In this document: positions 28,896-58,873 of the stretch, in pieces
How positions within the stretch are numbered: position 1 is the stretch's first letter
Layout of the letters: every line of letters starts with the position of its first letter
From: a virus
Lineage: Duplodnaviria; Caudoviricetes
Virus record (IMG/VR): IMGVR_UViG_3300033463_000076
Span: 1-64,000 of that record
Direction: 5' to 3' (one strand)
DNA: 64,000 nt
Translations under genes and position numbers: made by a program
The notes under the pieces: model-generated
Told to the model about the DNA's origin: nothing
Seen by the model: the letters and a program-made list of their open reading frames with translations, nothing else
Database searches by the model: none

Positions 28896-29702
28896 CTACA
28901 TATCTACGAGCTCGTCGATCTCATCGTCGGTGTACGGCTCCTCTTCCTGACTGTCGTCGTCTTCCGACTTGGAACCCTTAGTGCTGGGGGGAGCACCTAA
29001 CTTACCCAGACCACTCTTCTTGCGTTCCTTATTCATTTCCTCGAGGTCGTCACGAACTTCGTCCAGGAACTCCTCGAAATCGTCCTCGTCATCGAACTCC
29101 TGCTTTTCGAAGCGGCGGAGTACCGACTTGCCGAACGTTCCCGTGTTTTCCAGGACCTTCTCAAGACGCTTGCGGCGGCGGTCAACGGTCTTGTCACCCT
29201 TGAGCTTGGCGATTTCGTCGTTCTGACTCTTCACCAGCTTTGTCAGATTCTTGATCTGTCTGGAGAGATAGTCGTTGTGACCGTCGTCATCGTCATCCTC
29301 GTCGTCATCTTCGTCATCGTCCTTAGACTTCTTGGACTTACCGCCCTTCTTGGACTTCTTCGACTTCTTTGGTTTCTTGCCTTTCGGCTCGTCATCATCG
29401 TCATCGTCGTCGTCATCATCCTCGTCATCATCGTCCTCGTCATCATCATCGTCATCCCCACGGGCTGCTTCCAACTTGCGACGGACAATGCGGCTCGAAT
29501 GTTTCTGAGCGGCTTCGATGTAAGGGATTGCGTCATCGATAGCATTTTCGATGGCATTCGCTACATCCTCGTCAGAGGCGTCTTCCTCGATGTCGAGTTT
29601 TTTGGCAATGGTAGCGGCAAAACTCTCAACATCCTTGCGCTCGAATCCGTACCTCTTCACCTTCGGTTTCAGCGCTTTGATTACTTGCTGTAAATACTTC
29701 AT
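28896..29702 (-). CDS. capsid scaffolding protein with poly-Asp/Lys-rich insert
   Basis: Likely start MKYLQQVIKAL at 29702; helical and acidic; first gene after a late-type promoter. Confidence 0.6.
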   Translation of the reverse strand: MKYLQQVIKALKPKVKRYGFERKDVESFAATIAKKLDIEEDASDEDVANAIENAIDDAIPYIEAAQKHSSRIVRRKLEAARGDDDDDDEDDDDEDDDDDDDDDDEPKGKKPKKSKKSKKGGKSKKSKDDDEDDDEDDDDDGHNDYLSRQIKNLTKLVKSQNDEIAKLKGDKTVDRRRKRLEKVLENTGTFGKSVLRRFEKQEFDDEDDFEEFLDEVRDDLEEMNKERKKSGLGKLGAPPSTKGSKSEDDDSQEEEPYTDDEIDELVDM

Positions 29703-29733
29703 TACTCTTTGCTTTAGTTTAATGATTATTACT

Positions 29734-29842
29734 AAAAAAGGTCCACGCAGAGCCGAAACGCTGCGCAGACCGGACACTCTATAAGAGCAATGAGAGTCTT
29801 TTCGTCCTTACTGGGTGGCGTACAGCTTCATACGCTTTCTGA
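29734..29842 (-). ncRNA. candidate small RNA or late leader (sRNA-B)
   Basis: Promoter at 29846-29878; hairpin ACTCT-CATTGCTCTTAT-AGAGT; terminator GGTCTGCGCAG..CTGCGTGGACC-TTTTTT. Confidence 0.55.
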
Positions 29843-31815: not shown

Positions 31816-32124
31816 TTAACACTTTGTTACTGAACCTGAAACGATGTACGTCTTAACAGCGAACTTGGCTGCTATCTCATAGGGGACACGCTCACAGTGA
31901 TGGTCCATTTCCCACTTCTGACAGAACTGCTCACCCTCCTGGGATATGCAGAGGACTATCTTGCCCTCAGCTGAGCGGTTGACCATTTCCTGCAAGGCGT
32001 TGATGCAATCGAGGCAGAGATAAGCACTGCTGCGCCTCATTGACTTCGGATCAAACGAATAGACGTTGAACTTTCCGTCTGTCTGCTTGTAGTATTCTAC
32101 TACTTTCTTCTGTGTTACTTTCAT
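31816..32124 (-). CDS. hypothetical protein
   Basis: 102 aa; start preceded by the TAAGAGCA motif. Confidence 0.55.
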   Translation of the reverse strand: MKVTQKKVVEYYKQTDGKFNVYSFDPKSMRRSSAYLCLDCINALQEMVNRSAEGKIVLCISQEGEQFCQKWEMDHHCERVPYEIAAKFAVKTYIVSGSVTKC

Positions 32125-32270
32125 TGCTCTTACTTGTTTAAAACGATGTTTCTTAATGTTCCTTTATTATGGTGTAAAGGTAGTGATTTTTTTCCAATTA
32201 TGCAAGCAAAACACCCATTATTTTGTTAACCAGACTTAACCAGCGGAAAGTTTAACTTTACCTAACTTTT
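32122..32270 (-). promoter_or_regulatory. repeated accessory-gene promoter/leader unit, copy 1
   Basis: Phased GTTA(A/G) boxes; TTGC-N19-TACCTTTAC; CATTAAGAAAC; TAAGAGCA-ATG. Confidence 0.7.
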
Positions 32271-32276
32271 GCAACG

Positions 32277-32371
32277 AAAAACGCGCCCTAACCTCACGGT
32301 CCGGACGCGCAAGAGAGCTTGGTCAGTCGCTAAGAGCAATCCAAACGACTGCCTTCTCTCATTAAGAAACG
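32277..32371 (-). ncRNA. candidate antisense small RNA (sRNA-A)
   Basis: Promoter TTTG-N20-TATCTTTG (32375-32406); 5' tail GTTTCTTAATG; hairpin loop ATTGCTCTTA; terminator CGCGTCC..GGGCGCG-TTTTT with GTGA tetraloop. Confidence 0.6.
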
Positions 32372-32374
32372 CTG

Positions 32375-32406
32375 CAAAGATAGAACATTTTTTCTGTCCT
32401 ACCAAA
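32375..32406 (-). promoter_or_regulatory. consensus Bacteroidetes promoter downstream of terL
   Basis: TTTG (32403-32406), N20, TATCTTTG (32375-32382). Confidence 0.7.
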
Positions 32407-32420
32407 TTTTCTACGATATT

Positions 32421-33992
32421 TCATCTTCTCGGCCTAATCTTTCTCATAATCTCGGCGTCTGACATCGTATCGATCTTCGGATAGAACGTGTTGGCCAGTG
32501 CATCCATCCAGTCGGGCGACCGTCCGAGGCGTTCCTTGATATCGTCCTTCGGCTCTATGATGATACGGCCGTCGCTCTGGAACTTCCAGTGCGTATTGAT
32601 AGCCTCCTCCATCAGTTGCTCACACGGCGGCAGTGCTGGGTAGTAGCCGTTCTTCGGGTCGAGCCATTCCCTGACCTTCCAATACAGGTACGCCCTCATG
32701 TTGGCGAACTCTATCTGCCCAGTGCTGTCCTTGAACCCCTTGACACCCTCCGAGAACTTGCAGGAATAGACGTTCATCTTATACGTAGCCCTCGACTGCT
32801 CGTTCAGCTCCTTCAGCCTCGAGTAGACACCGGCACCCTCACCGATGGTATCGATGAAGGCCTTGTCACGCTTCCTGTCCGTCAGGGCATTGACAACCAT
32901 GCCGACAACGTGCATATGGTCGGCCTGACCTGCCGACTGGTGGGCAATGAACTGCGGCACGTAGTTGCCGTATCGGGGACACAGGATAGAAGCGTCTCGA
33001 CCCATACCGGCCACGTCGACACCCAGCAGGCATGACTTCTTGGGCTTGAACTTCTCTTCCTGCAGCTCCTTCCACCTGTTGACGGCCAGCTCGATCCACT
33101 CGTACGGTATGAGGGTATCGGTAGACACCTTCGGGAACAGACCCAGCACCTTGACACGGAACAGGTCGTTAGGACGGTAGTAGTTACCCTCCCACTCGAA
33201 ATCGCCGTCGCCTACGATGAAGTCGTCCTTACTGATCTTCGTGCACCACGTCTTGACCTTCTCGGCCACCCACCTATAGTCCACCTGACCAGGAATCAGG
33301 TTCTGCTTCGTCACGACATTCTCAGCATTGAGCGAGTTCAGACGGAACTTCTGAAAGCGGTCCTGAGTCATCGCCTTGGCGGCATAGCCCGTAGGGATGT
33401 TAGGGTTGAACACCAGCAGCAGACGAGAGTTACCTTGCAGGTTACCCTCGATGGCGTTGAAAATCGTCTCTGAGATACCAGTGGCCTCGGTCACGACGAA
33501 CATCACGTTAGCGGCATGGAATCCTGACCACGCCTCCGTAGCGTTGTTGTCGGCCTTGAATCCCGTCAAGAACCACTCGGCATAGTCCGTACGGATATCG
33601 TTCGCCACCAGTCTGCCAGGACAGGCAAACGGGAACTTGGCCCTTGCGGCCTTAACAAGTCTGTGGATTTCAGGCTTCATGATGTTCTCCACCTGACGGC
33701 CTGTAGGTGCGGTCATGGCGACCTTCGTGTTTTCCGACAGTATCTTTCCCGTAGGGTCGAACCTCGGCGTGAGATACATGAAGCATAATGAAGCGCAAGC
33801 GGCCACGAAGTCCTTACCTCGCGCTGTGCCGCTTGCTACTGCGGTCAGTGGATTGACCTGCACGGACTCAATGATAGCCTGCTGCTCTCTGTCAAGCCTT
33901 GCGCCCAACACGTCGCGTACAAACCTGTTCCAATCCTCTGCCCAATACTTAATCGCTTCATTTATCAGCCTCTGTCTCTCGGTGAGATTCAT
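32421..33992 (-). CDS. terL: terminase large subunit
   Basis: Walker A-like TAVASGTARGKD; VVTEATG Walker B; FRVKVLGLFP; nuclease GVDVAGMGRD; SPDWMDAL. Confidence 0.92.
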   Translation of the reverse strand: MNLTERQRLINEAIKYWAEDWNRFVRDVLGARLDREQQAIIESVQVNPLTAVASGTARGKDFVAACASLCFMYLTPRFDPTGKILSENTKVAMTAPTGRQVENIMKPEIHRLVKAARAKFPFACPGRLVANDIRTDYAEWFLTGFKADNNATEAWSGFHAANVMFVVTEATGISETIFNAIEGNLQGNSRLLLVFNPNIPTGYAAKAMTQDRFQKFRLNSLNAENVVTKQNLIPGQVDYRWVAEKVKTWCTKISKDDFIVGDGDFEWEGNYYRPNDLFRVKVLGLFPKVSTDTLIPYEWIELAVNRWKELQEEKFKPKKSCLLGVDVAGMGRDASILCPRYGNYVPQFIAHQSAGQADHMHVVGMVVNALTDRKRDKAFIDTIGEGAGVYSRLKELNEQSRATYKMNVYSCKFSEGVKGFKDSTGQIEFANMRAYLYWKVREWLDPKNGYYPALPPCEQLMEEAINTHWKFQSDGRIIIEPKDDIKERLGRSPDWMDALANTFYPKIDTMSDAEIMRKIRPRR

Positions 33993-44051: not shown

Positions 44052-44687
44052 TTACTCCTCCTCTTCTATTGGTTCATTATCAGTGTCATTGTCATCATCG
44101 TTCAGCTCCATAGCATCCTGAAACGCTGCTGCAGTAGCATCGTCTTCAGACGTCTTTACATCCTTGCCGTCAGACTTATCCTCCTCGGCTCCGAACATCA
44201 GGCCCTCACCGCTGACCTGAAGAATCTCCTTCTCTACGGTGGCGATCAGCTTCTTGTCTGCATCGGGTACGGCCTCGGCTTTCTTCAGGATAGCCTTTGC
44301 GTCCTTGAACTTGTGTTCGTCCTTGTTCTTACGGGCGAGGGCAATCAGGTCGTCGAACGTCTTCTTGTTCTTTGCCTTGATGTCCTTCTCTTTCTTCGCC
44401 ATTTCAGAAGCCTTACGGGCGGTCTCTACGGACTCCTCGAACTCCTTGATGTTAGTCACGAGGCCCTGAGCCTTTCCGACGGACTGGAGGGCTTTGATGA
44501 AGCCTTCCTCGAACTCCTCCGGCGTACCGTTGGCCACGATCGGGACGATGTTATCAACTGCCTTGTCTTTCACTCCTTTCGTGTCAGACAAGAGACTCAT
44601 GGCGAGGTTCTCGCCGTTCTTGCGGATTGTCAACGTTATCTGCTGACCATCCTGCAGCACTGCTGCAATTTCCTTGAAAAATTCCAT
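44052..44687 (-). CDS. PRTRC system protein E
   Basis: Likely start MEFFKEIAA; PIVANGTPEEFEEGF motif; acidic tail. Confidence 0.8.
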   Translation of the reverse strand: MEFFKEIAAVLQDGQQITLTIRKNGENLAMSLLSDTKGVKDKAVDNIVPIVANGTPEEFEEGFIKALQSVGKAQGLVTNIKEFEESVETARKASEMAKKEKDIKAKNKKTFDDLIALARKNKDEHKFKDAKAILKKAEAVPDADKKLIATVEKEILQVSGEGLMFGAEEDKSDGKDVKTSEDDATAAAFQDAMELNDDDNDTDNEPIEEEE

Positions 44688-44738
44688 ATCACTTACGTTA
44701 AAAACTTGTTTCTTAATGCTGGCCAACCGGCCGCTCTC

Positions 44739-44895: not shown

Positions 44896-45552
44896 TTACA
44901 GGTTGTCTTTGTAGTCCGAAACATTCTCCGCGCAGCTGATCTGAGTGGCACCGCGACGGTTAACGAAATACTTCTCCAGCGTTCTCTTGATGCGGATGAC
45001 CTGAATCTGGCAGTATTCCATGCCGACAGGGAAACCATCTTCCGAGTTGTCGAAGTAACCGAGGGTACGGAACGACTTCAGGCCTACAGACTTGGCAGCT
45101 GCGCTTCCTTCGTCGTACTTGTCAAAGCCAGTACCGTCAGACTTGACGAACATTCGAGTGAAGCGGACGGTATCGGTGTCGCTTGACTGCTTGAAGTACT
45201 CCTGAACGATACAGAACTGGTTCAGCAGTGGGTCGTTACTGCGAAGAAGCTCGTCGATCCAGTAAGGCGAGAACGTTCCAGTGGTAGCCACGTCGAACTT
45301 GTAAGGCTCCTGTTTCTCCTCCTTAGCCTCTGCCGGCTGCTCGGGCTCTACAGGCTCCAGGTCTTCCTCTTTCTCCACTCGGACATTACCCTGATACTGC
45401 TTCTTCAGGGAAGCCTTCAATGCTGATACACTGCGCTTACCTTTCAACTCCTCCAGCTGCTTGAAAAGCTCCTCGGACTTGATGGTTGCTGACTCGAAGT
45501 TCTCACTCTCGAAAATGCTCTTAATCTGAGCCTTAATCTCTTTTTCTTTCAT
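44896..45552 (-). CDS. hypothetical protein
   Basis: 218 aa; TAAGAGCA-ATG start. Confidence 0.55.
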   Translation of the reverse strand: MKEKEIKAQIKSIFESENFESATIKSEELFKQLEELKGKRSVSALKASLKKQYQGNVRVEKEEDLEPVEPEQPAEAKEEKQEPYKFDVATTGTFSPYWIDELLRSNDPLLNQFCIVQEYFKQSSDTDTVRFTRMFVKSDGTGFDKYDEGSAAAKSVGLKSFRTLGYFDNSEDGFPVGMEYCQIQVIRIKRTLEKYFVNRRGATQISCAENVSDYKDNL

Positions 45553-45700
45553 TGCTCTTAATTTTTTAAAAACGTTTCTTAATATGTTTATTGTTTACAC
45601 TTGTAAAGGTAGTGAATTTTCTCGAATTGTGCAAGGGTTACGCTCTTTATTTTGTTAACCGGACTTAACTGGCGAAGAGTTTAACCTTTCCTAACTTTTG
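45550..45700 (-). promoter_or_regulatory. repeated promoter/leader unit, copy 2
   Basis: GTTA boxes; TTGC-N19-TACCTTTAC; ATTAAGAAAC; TAAGAGCA-ATG. Confidence 0.7.
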
Positions 45701-45893: not shown

Positions 45894-46085
45894 TTAATAC
45901 ATTTTCTGGACGAACAGCTTTGTATTCCAGTCATTGACATACGTGAAATACTTCTCACGGGGCTCACAGACCAGGTTGACTTTCTTCTTCTTGTCCTCAA
46001 ACCACTGATCTGCTTCTTCCTGAGTCTTGAACCTCTTGGTCTCTCTCCTCAGTGACTTCTCGTTTAAAATGATGATTCTGACCAT
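45894..46085 (-). CDS. hypothetical protein
   Basis: 63 aa; TAAGAGCA-ATG start. Confidence 0.5.
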   Translation of the reverse strand: MVRIIILNEKSLRRETKRFKTQEEADQWFEDKKKKVNLVCEPREKYFTYVNDWNTKLFVQKMY

Positions 46086-46235
46086 TGCTCTTACTTCTTT
46101 TAGTTGTTTCTTAATGTTTTATTTTTATGATGTAAAGGTAGTGAAAAAGCGCGATATATGCAAGGTTTTCGGCGAAAAAATACTTAAAAAGTGTTCAGCG
46201 ACCGATTATTTAACCTTACCTAACTTTTGCAGCGT
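46083..46235 (-). promoter_or_regulatory. repeated promoter/leader unit, copy 3
   Basis: TTGC-N19-TACCTTTAC; CATTAAGAAAC; TAAGAGCA-ATG. Confidence 0.7.
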
Positions 46236-50303: not shown

Positions 50304-50417
50304 TCAAAATAGCCTCGGAGTAACATTAAGAAACTTGCTCGTAAAAAAGCAATGAAACGCCTCACGGCGGTATTTCCTAAACTAACTATTATTCCACCTA
50401 ACTCGCATAGCGGCGAC

Positions 50418-50455
50418 TGGCGTGTAGTGGGGTAGGATTCATTAGCTACACGCCA
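50418..50455. terminator. perfect 10-bp inverted repeat
   Basis: TGGCGTGTAG / CTACACGCCA just after the stop of 50462-50998. Confidence 0.5.
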
Positions 50456-52545: not shown

Positions 52546-52980
52546 CTACACGGCCGGCAGGAAACCGCGTCCCTGCCGAGTCGTATCTGTCGTACGTCCT
52601 AAATACTTCTTGACCTCCCAAATGACGTCGCTGACGGTCTGGAAGTACACCTCAGAGCGTTCAATCTTAATACCGACGCTTTCGATCAACTTCTGCTGTG
52701 TCTTGTTGAAGAAATCAGCAGCCAGCTTACAGCTCTCCGTGTAGTTCATGCCACCGAAGCGGTAAACGATCTCCCAGAGCTTATCACGAACTTTCAGGTC
52801 TGCCTCAACCGCCTTGGCTATCTCCCTGGCTTTGTTGACACGGGCCTGATTCATCTTAACCCACAACTTACAGAACTCGTCTTTGTCGAGGTCTGACTGG
52901 TTGTAAACTTCGTTGATGTGCCAGTACTCGGCTTCTGAAACCTTCATCTGGACTCTTGCTTCAAATTCTGACTGTAACAT
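52546..52980 (-). CDS. hypothetical phage protein
   Basis: MLQSEFEARV...INEVY...DKDEFCKLW; TAAGAGCA-ATG start. Confidence 0.6.
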   Translation of the reverse strand: MLQSEFEARVQMKVSEAEYWHINEVYNQSDLDKDEFCKLWVKMNQARVNKAREIAKAVEADLKVRDKLWEIVYRFGGMNYTESCKLAADFFNKTQQKLIESVGIKIERSEVYFQTVSDVIWEVKKYLGRTTDTTRQGRGFLPAV

Positions 52981-53110
52981 TGCTCTTAATTCTTTAAAAA
53001 ACCGTTTCTTAATGTTTTATTTTGATAGTGTAAAGGTAGTGAAAAACGGCGATATACGCAAGTATTTCAGTCTTTATTTTCTTAAAAAGTGTTCAACCAA
53101 AAACTAAATA
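52978..53110 (-). promoter_or_regulatory. repeated promoter/leader unit, copy 4
   Basis: TTGC-N19-TACCTTTAC; CATTAAGAAAC; TAAGAGCA-ATG. Confidence 0.7.
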
Positions 53111-54606: not shown

Positions 54607-54783
54607 CTACAATCTACCGAAGTGGGCATCTGCTCCACGCTTCGCTGATAAACAACTCGGATAGCCAGTAGCGTGCGTTACCATACTTCCATCATCCTGC
54701 ACGGTTCCAACGTGCCAGTCCGGACGTGCAAACCTCTTTCCTGCGTTTGCGTTCCAAATCGAATAACCTTTGTACTTAATCAT
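54607..54783 (-). CDS. hypothetical protein (58 aa)
   Basis: MIKYKGYSIWNANAGKRFARPDWH...; TAAGAGCA-ATG start. Confidence 0.55.
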   Translation of the reverse strand: MIKYKGYSIWNANAGKRFARPDWHVGTVQDDGSMVTHATGYPSCLSAKRGADAHFGRL

Positions 54784-54788
54784 TGCTC

Positions 54789-55253
54789 TTATTTCTTTAG
54801 CGTTTCCAAAATAACCATATTCTCCTTACACTTGCTGACGATGAAGCGATACGACCAACCACCTTCCGAGAACTCCTCACGGAACTTCAGTCCCAGCTCT
54901 TTCAGCTTAGAACGGACACCCTGCTTCTTCTCGTCCAACTTCCAAAGAGTATCGACACTCACACCAAATGACGTAGCCTGAATGCCAAACAGCGGCTTCA
55001 GGTACTGGTAGAGGTCGATGTACGTATTCTTAACCTCAGCGAACAGGCGCTGTGATATCCACTCCCACGTTACTTCTTTCTCCTTCGGGGTCTTCATCCA
55101 CTTCGAATAGTACTGACCGTCGCCACCCTCGAAGCCTGAAACCAAAATCTTAACGGCTTTCTGCGGTGTCGTCTCGTAGCACAGATCATCCACGAAGTCT
55201 ATCACGAAACCTTCTGACTTGACTCTCTCGATTGTCTCTTTGCTGATATTCAT
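54789..55253 (-). CDS. hypothetical protein
   Basis: 154 aa, coupled ORF. Confidence 0.5.
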   Translation of the reverse strand: MNISKETIERVKSEGFVIDFVDDLCYETTPQKAVKILVSGFEGGDGQYYSKWMKTPKEKEVTWEWISQRLFAEVKNTYIDLYQYLKPLFGIQATSFGVSVDTLWKLDEKKQGVRSKLKELGLKFREEFSEGGWSYRFIVSKCKENMVILETLKK

Positions 55254-55257
55254 ATCT

Positions 55258-55494
55258 CTAACAGATTTCGAGGTTCTTCATTTCGTTCTCGTCGAAGGTG
55301 TAGCCCATCTTAGCCATTTCCTTCACTGCAGCTTTCTTGGCACCACTGGCTGTACTATAGATGCGACCCTTACCGATAGAAAACCAGTACTCGCCGTCCT
55401 GGATAGCAGTCACCATTATCTCGTCTTTCTGTCCTCCGTTAAGCGAGAACTTTACCGACTTTCTTTCCGAATTGTTACACTTGATTGTTACCAT
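55258..55494 (-). CDS. hypothetical protein
   Basis: Real start MVTIKC at 55494, after TAAGAGCA. Confidence 0.55.
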   Translation of the reverse strand: MVTIKCNNSERKSVKFSLNGGQKDEIMVTAIQDGEYWFSIGKGRIYSTASGAKKAAVKEMAKMGYTFDENEMKNLEIC

Positions 55495-55635
55495 TGCTCT
55501 TACTTCTTTTTGATGTTTCTTAATGTTTTTATTTATGGTGTAAAGGTAGTAAAAAAACACGATATTTGCAATAGATACACTCTTTATTTTGTTAACGAAA
55601 CTTTAGCAGCGGAAAGATTAACCTTTCATAACTTT
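55492..55635 (-). promoter_or_regulatory. repeated promoter/leader unit, copy 5
   Basis: GTTA boxes; TTGC-N19-TACCTTTAC; CATTAAGAAAC; TAAGAGCA-ATG. Confidence 0.7.
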
Positions 55636-57352: not shown

Positions 57353-58549
57353 TCAGAACTTTCTCGTTTCCTTTGCCTTGAAATTGTACACTGGCTTGAT
57401 AACCTCAAGCACCTCCACCGTAGGCTCTATGCAGTCGATAATCTCCTGCATCGGCTTATAGACCATAGGACTCTCGTCGAGGGTTTCAGGACAGACGGAC
57501 GTAGAATACACATCCTTCATTTCTGACTTGAACTGCTCTACATCGAGCGTCTGGAAGGCTTTCTTTCGGCTCATTAAGCGTCCAGCTCCGTGCGGTGCAG
57601 AATACAGCCAATCAGGATTGCCCTTACCGACACAAATCAGCGAACCGTCGCGCATATTCATCGGGATAATCAGACGCTCACCTCTCATAGCCCTCACGGC
57701 ACCCTTACGGACTGTCAGGCGGTTCATGCTGTTGTCGATGTAGTTATGCACCGTCTGGAACATATCGTATGCGTGGAGTTCCATCTTCTTACAGATCGTT
57801 CTCATTATCACATGACGATTCAGCTCTGCATACTTCTGAGCAATCATCATATCATTGATATAGTCGGCAATCCACTCAGGACCGATGCCGGCCAAATCAC
57901 CATCGACTGACGGAATTTTCAACTTCTGCAGCTCGCTCTGGATATCCTTCTGACGTCCTTCCTTCTTCAGTCTGTCAATCAATTCCTGCCTCTGCTTTTC
58001 ATCGATCTTCTTCGCTATGCCACAAGCAGCCTCAATTCCTTTCTGCTGATAATACTCACAGATACGGACACCGAGGTTACGGCTTCCTGAATGGATGACG
58101 ATATAGAAACGGCCGTCCTTATCCACGTTCGCCTCGATGAAGTGGTTACCACCACCCAGCGTACCGAGCGAACGATAATCGTTATCGATATTGATAATCG
58201 ACTTCGCTTTCAGGAACAGCAGTTCCGGCATCTGCTCTATGGCCTCCTTATGGATATTGAACCCAGACGGAACGAACTCGTTAATCACTTCGTCGAGCTT
58301 CTTCAGATCGACCTCAGCGTGCTCGAAGTTGGCTACGAGCATACCACATCCGATATCCACTCCTACGGTGTTCGGCACTACCTGGTCTTTCAGTTCGATG
58401 ACCGTCCCGATAGTACAGCCTTTCCCCGCATGGCAGTCAGGCATAACTCTAATCTTGCAATCCTTATAGGCATCGCACTCACTCATTTTCTCAATCTGCC
58501 AAGTGGCTTCATCTTCCACCGTCTTAGCGAAAATCTTAACTCTTTCCAT
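57353..58549 (-). CDS. rtcB: RtcB family RNA 3'-5' ligase
   Basis: MPDCHAGKG, GVDIGCG, GTLGGGNHFIE, IHSGSRNLG, HNY, APHGAGR, DESPMVYK. Confidence 0.93.
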   Translation of the reverse strand: MERVKIFAKTVEDEATWQIEKMSECDAYKDCKIRVMPDCHAGKGCTIGTVIELKDQVVPNTVGVDIGCGMLVANFEHAEVDLKKLDEVINEFVPSGFNIHKEAIEQMPELLFLKAKSIINIDNDYRSLGTLGGGNHFIEANVDKDGRFYIVIHSGSRNLGVRICEYYQQKGIEAACGIAKKIDEKQRQELIDRLKKEGRQKDIQSELQKLKIPSVDGDLAGIGPEWIADYINDMMIAQKYAELNRHVIMRTICKKMELHAYDMFQTVHNYIDNSMNRLTVRKGAVRAMRGERLIIPMNMRDGSLICVGKGNPDWLYSAPHGAGRLMSRKKAFQTLDVEQFKSEMKDVYSTSVCPETLDESPMVYKPMQEIIDCIEPTVEVLEVIKPVYNFKAKETRKF

Positions 58550-58873
58550 TGCTATTATTCTTACGTTTAACGTGTTCTCTTCTCTTTACTCTTGCTGACA
58601 GGCTCTGGTTCTTATTCCATCCCTTCGGCACAAGCATGAAATCCTCATTGAACGGAACAGGAACAGGGCGTATCATATCCGCTGCATCCTTGCAAAACTC
58701 CTTCAAGAACTTCTTCAGATCGCTCATACTCTATTCATGTTTACATTCAATACTATCATCATCAACCTGGCCACCATAATGCTTGCACATCTGGCAAGCA
58801 ATAGAGCCGACCATCATCTTACCACCGCCGAACATCGGCCGTTCTCCGTGCGGACATGGATTCGTGAAATAAT

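Follow-up and report, generated by a model that had tools for sequence, protein, structure and literature searches.

The sRNA-A locus

The window analysed here comprises bases 1-64000 of a complete 80,112-bp IMG/VR virus record. Roughly in its middle lies terL, whose best tblastn match is annotated as terminase large subunit, followed by a short unit that we refer to as sRNA-A. The minus strand is the coding direction of the genes around this unit, and all of its elements lie on it:

32421..33992, minus strand: terL, an open reading frame of 523 aa directly upstream of the sRNA-A unit
32403..32406, minus strand: TTTG, predicted -33 element of the sRNA-A promoter, identified by sequence and separated from the -7 box by a 20-nt spacer
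32375..32382, minus strand: -7 box TATCTTTG, which fits TAnnTTTG and ends 4 bases before the 5' seed
32277..32370, minus strand: sRNA-A, predicted transcript of ~94 nt with its putative start at G32370 (+/-2 nt)
32360..32370, minus strand: 5' seed GUUUCUUAAUG (DNA GTTTCTTAATG), exact complement of leader box 1 CAUUAAGAAAC
32313..32360, minus strand: hairpin 1, with outer stem GAGAG/CUCUC and an inner stem around CAGUCG/CGACUG
32331..32340, minus strand: seed 2 AUUGCUCUUA (DNA ATTGCTCTTA), in the apical region of hairpin 1 and complementary to the start tag UAAGAGCAAU(G)
32277..32310, minus strand: intrinsic terminator, a GUGA-loop hairpin (32310-32282) followed by U5 (32281-32277)

The Bacteroides promoter consensus combines TTTG near -33 with TAnnTTTG at -7 (PMC7366714), and the predicted promoter is a match to this motif at the level of sequence (TTTG, 20 nt, TATCTTTG). 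Transcription would begin at G32370; a start 2-3 nt further downstream would cut the 5' seed to 8-9 nt. The terminator stem is GC-rich and comprises 11 bp with an internal mismatch, which is why a simple consensus terminator scan missed it. The 96-nt sRNA-A sequence has a predicted folding energy of -42.4 kcal/mol (z = -3.95, relative to 200 shuffles). In this fold, the first 12 nt are predicted to be unpaired, while seed 2 falls within a 16-nt apical region that is closed only by a weak 3-bp inner helix, with an unpaired probability of 0.61 vs 0.35 for the remaining RNA.

The complements of the two leader boxes run along sRNA-A in leader order, that of box 1 followed by that of box 2. This order rules out that the unit is an inverted copy of a leader, and it further implies that simultaneous pairing of both seeds with a leader would require two separate helices. 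By our own arithmetic, the chance of finding an exact 11-mer and an exact 10-mer complement jointly in one 96-nt stretch is ~1e-9 per stretch. We also considered a small protein as the product of the unit and rejected it, as a 47-codon frame is broken in the relative L009 and no reading frame is common to both. A comparison of sRNA-A with Rfam, with C4 included in the search, returned nothing at gathering score and chance-level matches only at E <= 5. Among the assembled contigs of four metatranscriptome sets, none lay over 32277-32406.

Start tags and tagged genes

Both seeds have more counterparts in the genome than expected. CATTAAGAAAC has 8 matches at <=1 mismatch vs 0.86 expected, a count reached by 0/100 shuffles, and TAAGAGCAAT has 14 matches vs 3.2 expected. 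In the leaders, these motifs form a two-part tag: box 1 (CAUUAAGAAAC), 11-15 nt, and then UAAGAGCAAUG / TAAGAGCAATG, of which the last three bases are the start codon. The exact complements of 11 and 10 nt thereby cover roughly positions -20 to -37 and -8 to +2 of the targets. The following sites were found in the window:

32122..32158, minus strand: box 1 and tag, leader of the 102-aa gene at 31816-32124; seed duplexes of -13.5 and -13.3 kcal/mol
45550..45584, minus strand: box 1 with one mismatch and tag, leader of a 218-aa gene; motif scan and duplex energies
46083..46116, minus strand: box 1 and tag, leader of a 63-aa gene; motif scan and duplex energies
52978..53014, minus strand: box 1 and tag, leader of a 144-aa gene; motif scan and duplex energies
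55492..55525, minus strand: box 1 and tag, leader of a 78-aa gene; best predicted target, with a summed energy of -29.0 kcal/mol
54781..54791, minus strand: start tag only, 58-aa gene; motif scan
44708..44718, minus strand: box 1 only, ahead of the gene at 44052-44687; motif scan and duplex energy

Five or six mRNAs inside the window thus carry both parts of the tag (dual-tag mRNAs). The tagged genes of the window encode five small proteins of unknown family and the 218-aa protein; outside the window, the tag is found on the genes for a DUF4942 protein, an AAA_24 ATPase and a tyrosine integrase. AAGAGCA followed by ATG is the commonest context of open reading frame starts in the 80-kb genome (11 starts vs 4 for the next best), and all 11 sense tags are phased exactly onto the ATG. 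At genome positions 65375-65399, box 1 and tag fill a 25-nt intercistronic spacer that leaves no room for a promoter. The tag therefore belongs to the start region of the mRNA and not to the promoter. Besides, some of the conserved promoter cassettes do not carry it.

A profile of 8-mer complementarity along the 96-nt sRNA-A gave >=9 genomic sites only at ~nt 2-13 and 33-42, that is, in the two stretches predicted to be accessible. When all 119 called genes were ranked by a seed-only duplex calculation, seven of the eight best predicted targets were dual-tag genes, with summed seed energies of -25 to -29 kcal/mol vs a genome median of -14.9; individual seed duplexes reach only about -13 to -16 kcal/mol. 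We relied on this calculation since a duplex prediction with the whole RNA, in which accessibility was ignored, did not single out the tagged genes.

Several further sites were recorded alongside. On the plus strand, box 1 and a near-tag AAAAGCAATG stand ahead of a 27-codon open reading frame (50324-50435), either a tiny tagged gene or a decoy. A gene for an RtcB RNA ligase (Pfam 1.4e-64; 57353-58556, minus strand) starts with the one-mismatch tag AATAGCAATG. At genome positions 74566-74597 (L216:11566-11597, minus strand), two tags, TAAGAGCAATG and then TAAGAGTAATG, form a tandem with a distance of 22 nt. The AAA_24 ATPase gene begins at the former, and the latter lies within the first codons of this gene in another frame. 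The repeated promoter cassettes have a GTTAA-rich upstream block in common (e.g. GTTAggtaaaGTTAAac, a short gap and GTTAAgtctgGTTAAc). Such blocks are present at 32215-32268 (minus strand) and upstream of the cassettes at ~45.65, 46.2, 53.1 and 55.6 kb, and they may be operators through which a transcription factor controls the same genes.

The initial annotation had described a non-coding unit after terL that runs from a promoter to a terminator and carries two exact complements (11 and 10 nt) of leader boxes, one in a free tail and the other in a loop. This description held in each respect: the elements are all found on the minus strand at the positions listed above, the motif matches exceed chance, and the fold leaves the 5' 12 nt unpaired and places seed 2 apically. 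Its portrayal of the targets as a dispersed accessory regulon, on the other hand, was borne out in part only, since the integrase and the AAA_24 ATPase do not fit a purely accessory set.

A second anti-tag unit

A second unit, sRNA-B, precedes the head-gene block:

29725..29840, minus strand: sRNA-B, with the anti-tag CAUUGCUCUUA in a loop

It is composed of a promoter box TATTTTTG, a first hairpin, the loop with CAUUGCUCUUA and a strong terminator. A variant tag, AAGAGTAATG (29700-29709), marks the start of the first gene behind sRNA-B, and the same C-to-T variant is found at this place in L009 and L238. The leader could therefore pair in cis with that start via G:U. A 4.7-kb contig from an RNA library terminates in adapter sequence at 29801; it covers part of sRNA-B and the terminator (29801-29725) and continues for ~4 kb beyond.

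Conservation in related phages

Deposited phages gave no DNA match, and the closest TerL among them is 30% identical. MAGs of Prevotella, Bacteroides, Bacteroidales and Paludibacter contain related TerL genes. Together with the integrase gene, the classification of one relative as a provirus indicates that the phage is temperate. The proposed Quimbyviridae are alike in genome size, RtcB and integrase (PMC8008677), a similarity that we take as resemblance only.

A TerL search of IMG/VR yielded 130 related stretches, of which 80 were kept and 79 had enough sequence. ATTGCTCTT occurs within 200 nt after terL in 76 of these 79 relatives (67-90% TerL identity). L022, one of the three exceptions, has ATTGTTCTT in its place. 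This L022 seed (L022:4790-4830) is exactly complementary to AAGAACAATG, a tag variant found on several genes of related genomes, and a G:U pair would still allow it to bind the standard tag. In every lineage (window, L009, L010, L043, L238 and the main group), a TAnnTTTG box sits between the terL stop codon and the RNA, 4-5 nt before the start of the latter.

In the main group (~72% TerL identity), the unit comprises a TAccTTTG box and a 5' hairpin, after which UCAUUGCUCUU is single-stranded and the terminator bears a UGUGAAAG loop. The leaders of this group carry AAGAGCAATGAAA, and the complementarity extends into the coding sequence (ATGAAA), up to +6. The seed is accessible both where a loop presents it (window, L009) and where it is part of a linker (L010, L043, main group); across three architectures, its unpaired probability is 0.56-1.0 vs 0.29-0.39 for the rest of the RNA. 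RNAalifold, applied to 10 distinct sequences, placed two hairpins around an invariant 11-nt block, TCATTGCTCTT, with compensatory changes at 9 of 21 pairs. The terminators are homologous, with a GUGA-type loop that is kept and stems that show compensatory changes. L009 has its outer stem swapped for GGAGAAA/UUUUUCC with pairing preserved, and L043 and L010 have a 5' hairpin whose sequence shows no relation to the main-group one. In L039 (11590-11625), the whole terminator hairpin is inverted relative to near-identical relatives; the hairpin as such is kept and the UGUGAAAG loop is lost.

In each of five complete main-group genomes, AAGAGCAATGA occurs exactly twice in antisense orientation. The two sites were located in one of these genomes and coincide with the unit downstream of terL and with another unit that precedes the head genes. 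Sense copies of AAGAGCAATGA number 3-6 per genome in the same five genomes, vs 0-1 for a reversed control.

While the start-codon seed is shared throughout, the 5' seed differs between lineages. L010 and the independently found L238 have the 5' seed GTTTCTTTATT(AC) and leaders with (GT)AATAAAGAAAC, i.e. two changes relative to the window that are present on both the 5' seed and box 1. In addition, the base 5' of AAGAGCAAT switches together with its partner, in L010 only. Single-base tag variants in the relatives comprised 3 G:U-compatible and ~6 disruptive changes, i.e. no excess of the former, though this test does not discriminate between RNA pairing and a DNA motif.

From the terL-downstream RNAs of the main group, we built a covariance model, R1, of hairpin, single-stranded seed and terminator. 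It scored L010 at 62 bits and L043 at 69 bits, and did not detect the window and L009 versions at E <= 1. The window unit nevertheless agrees with the main group in its position after the terL stop, the TAnnTTTG box, ATTGCTCTT and the GUGA-type loop, and L010 and L238 combine the window-type 5' seed with the main-group architecture. On the basis of this agreement, and with L010 and L238 linking the two, we consider the window and main-group units homologous. The exact two-seed pattern was found in IMG/VR only on the contig of L009, and a relaxed pattern (GTTTCTT, a 15-45 nt gap, ATTGCTCTT) returned almost only chance matches. Nine metagenome matches to the exact pattern have no promoter or terminator context and were read as chance.

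A Bacteroides MAG (69% TerL identity) retains a remnant of the unit, with the terminator and TTCATTGCTCAT, a mutated seed, and neither promoter box nor 5' hairpin:

L218:7466-7539, G007:C6 (L223-L226): decayed copy, 39 bits with model R1

No shared start tag was found at the open reading frame starts of the 80-kb contig of this MAG.

Covariation across relatives had been named by the initial annotation as a check, and the stems do covary around an invariant, accessible seed in a unit present in 76/79 relatives. The joint change of seed and box in L010/L238, and the MAG in which a decayed copy coincides with the lack of a shared start tag, lend support, at the sequence level, to the reading that the unit functions as RNA. 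The assertion that the RNA is antisense to both conserved leader boxes must be narrowed, however: the seed for the start codon is universal, whereas the 5' seed is limited to the window, L009, L010 and L238 lineages.

A model for sRNA-A and its alternatives

Taken together, these data suggest that sRNA-A acts in trans as an antisense RNA and keeps the tagged mRNAs from initiating translation, a reading to which we assign a probability of roughly 0.7. Host RNA polymerase would transcribe sRNA-A from its own TTTG/TAnnTTTG promoter, and the intrinsic terminator would end the transcript. Its free 5' end and hairpin loop would then pair with the two-part tag before the phage genes. Pairing at -8 to +2 (plus ~-20 to -37 where box 1 is present) would cover the landing site of the ribosome, and translation initiation at the covered start region would be blocked, probably with decay of the mRNA. 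The same anti-tag would be supplied by sRNA-B as a second unit. Transcription and its exact 5' end, action in trans, the repressive sign, the timing and the biological role of sRNA-A are what we infer in this model. The modest energy of the individual seed duplexes weighs against it, and, to our knowledge, so does the lack of Hfq in Bacteroidetes.

One RNA probably switches the translation of the tagged early and accessory genes off together. Its role could be either the shut-off of early functions and the integrase during lytic growth or silencing in the lysogen, and both fit equally well. In the latter case, tagged genes of incoming relatives could be silenced as well. We tentatively extend this to an RNA immunity code made up of tag and anti-tag, in which the constitutive anti-tag RNAs of a prophage would silence the early mRNAs of the resident phage and of incoming relatives, yet regard it as rather doubtful. 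If true, the universal start-codon seed would lead to broad cross-immunity, the pairs of 5' seed and box 1 (window/L009 vs L010/L238) would define immunity groups, like c4 in P1/P7, and the code would be in use throughout a large family of Bacteroidales phages from gut and rumen.

Several alternatives have to be weighed against translational repression. The same pairing could have the opposite sign, such that sRNA-A stabilises or activates the tagged mRNAs, be it through protection of their 5' ends or through the opening of structure. Complementarity, conservation and covariation are silent on sign, and box 1 of L238 lies at about the 5' end of the mRNA, where a duplex could protect from 5'-end-dependent decay. 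We still consider activation improbable: seed 2 spans the start codon (-8 to +2, and to +6 in the main group), which is expected to exclude the ribosome, the target leaders are A-rich and revealed no inhibitory structure when their sequences were inspected by eye, and the one characterised pairing at a Bacteroides translation start is repressive (PMC7366714).

Less probable still is that a DNA-binding protein of phage or host recognises the boxes irrespective of orientation, with the copies after terL serving as operators at a promoter. A DNA-binding protein would hardly call for 11/11 sense tags phased on the ATG, some of them in promoterless intercistronic spacers, nor for complementarity that enters the coding sequence (ATGAAA) in the main group. 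The antisense copies are found only inside units with promoter and terminator, where they stay accessible while the flanking stems covary, and each box is inverted separately with the order kept, unlike in a composite operator. That said, a shared DNA motif would likewise change together in both orientations, the G:U test carries no RNA-specific signal, and the anti-box 1 copy is located at the predicted start of a promoter.

At a similarly low level we place the idea that the unit is mainly a cis element, either a terminator or 3' UTR of terL or the leader of an antitermination checkpoint, whose anti-tag would be incidental or act only on the next leader. A terminator is expected after terL, and a tagged leader follows within ~200 nt downstream in the window and in many relatives. 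The position of sRNA-B ahead of the head genes, and the RNA-library contig that reads ~4 kb past sRNA-B and its terminator, would also be in keeping with such a role. Against this, the TAnnTTTG box stands between the terL stop and the RNA in every lineage, and the next gene (102 aa) has a complete promoter cassette of its own. In L011-type genomes, the genes after the unit are convergent, so that the unit has nothing to read into and is not the leader of a downstream gene. A plain terminator, moreover, would not keep an invariant accessible 11-nt block while its 5' hairpin was replaced outright.

Finally, a functionless relic of recombination between repeated promoter-leader cassettes, retaining inverted pieces of a leader, would agree with the repeated, modular look of the cassettes and with the varying content of the region after terL among relatives, but it is highly implausible given a box order that differs from that of an inverted leader, retention in 76/79 relatives (TerL identity 67-90%) while the seed stays invariant and the stems covary, and the joint chance of ~1e-9 per 96-nt stretch for the exact complements.

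Should translational repression by sRNA-A be the right reading, a whole set of phage genes, the integrase among them, would be under translational control by one or two small RNAs, and the start-codon tag would be portable, so that newly acquired genes can pick it up. This offers a simple, testable model for an early-to-late or lysogeny switch in an abundant group of gut and rumen phages, and a ready-made orthogonal pair of tag and sRNA for Bacteroides genetics.

Relation to known systems

A literature search that included Bacteroides phage sRNAs retrieved no published description of such RNAs in Bacteroidales phages. In a 2025 review on phage sRNAs, the phylum is unmentioned (PMC12197685), and the words promoter, small RNA, ncRNA and antisense are absent from the paper on Quimby-like gut phages (PMC8008677). 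Regulatory RNAs of Bacteroidales phages are essentially undescribed.

In T4, the protein repressor RegA recognises a translation-start feature shared by many early mRNAs, which are thereby shut off together. The analogy to sRNA-A is functional only, with a protein in the case of RegA and RNA base pairing here. Lambda 6S is an RNA that is terminated just after the late promoter. StxS is, according to the review, a short phage RNA bounded by promoter and terminator that acts in trans by base pairing (PMC12197685). StxS and lambda 6S are late-operon leaders made in the absence of antitermination, whereas sRNA-A has no dependent operon downstream; the comparison suits sRNA-B better than sRNA-A.

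A start-codon tag has a counterpart in the Cluster K mycobacteriophages, where the SAS/ESAS, a conserved asymmetric 13-bp tag, occurs only a few bases from the start codons of many non-structural genes (PMC3203893). The SAS genes belong to different families, and the SAS sometimes overlaps the upstream stop codon (PMC3203893). Its authors left open whether RNA or a protein binds it, and several genomes carry one copy in reverse orientation (PMC3203893). Differences lie in the actinobacterial host, the Shine-Dalgarno core of the SAS and the fact that no partner RNA is described for it, while in our case a matching antisense RNA gene is predicted. Our model suggests a testable answer to the question of what purpose these start-associated sequences serve (PMC3203893).

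As in c4, the RNA and its target change together between related phages, here between the window lineage and L010/L238. Citron and Schuster (1990) reportedly described a two-segment a'/b' pairing of c4 and its covariation between P1 and P7. In the above review, the c4 antisense RNA of P1 and P7 is portrayed as presenting in loops short complements to the surroundings of the ribosome binding site and thereby blocking an mRNA of its own phage (PMC12197685). Unlike sRNA-A, c4 is released by processing from the very transcript that it regulates, and it acts on a single operon (icd-ant). sRNA-A, in turn, has its own predicted promoter and about a dozen dispersed targets, none of which was recognised as an antirepressor.

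GibS of B. thetaiotaomicron represses via seeds on the translation initiation regions of mRNAs that lack a Shine-Dalgarno sequence (PMC7366714). It shares with sRNA-A the host phylum, a TAnnTTTG promoter and single-stranded seeds (R1/R2 of GibS, towards the 5' end) across start codons. GibS is chromosomal, however, and its targets are two or three metabolic mRNAs, unrelated to one another, with which it pairs over long, imperfect stretches, whereas sRNA-A is encoded by a phage, its targets share an identical tag that matches short exact seeds, and the two RNAs have no sequence similarity. sRNA-A would work like GibS and c4 and is a member of neither family.
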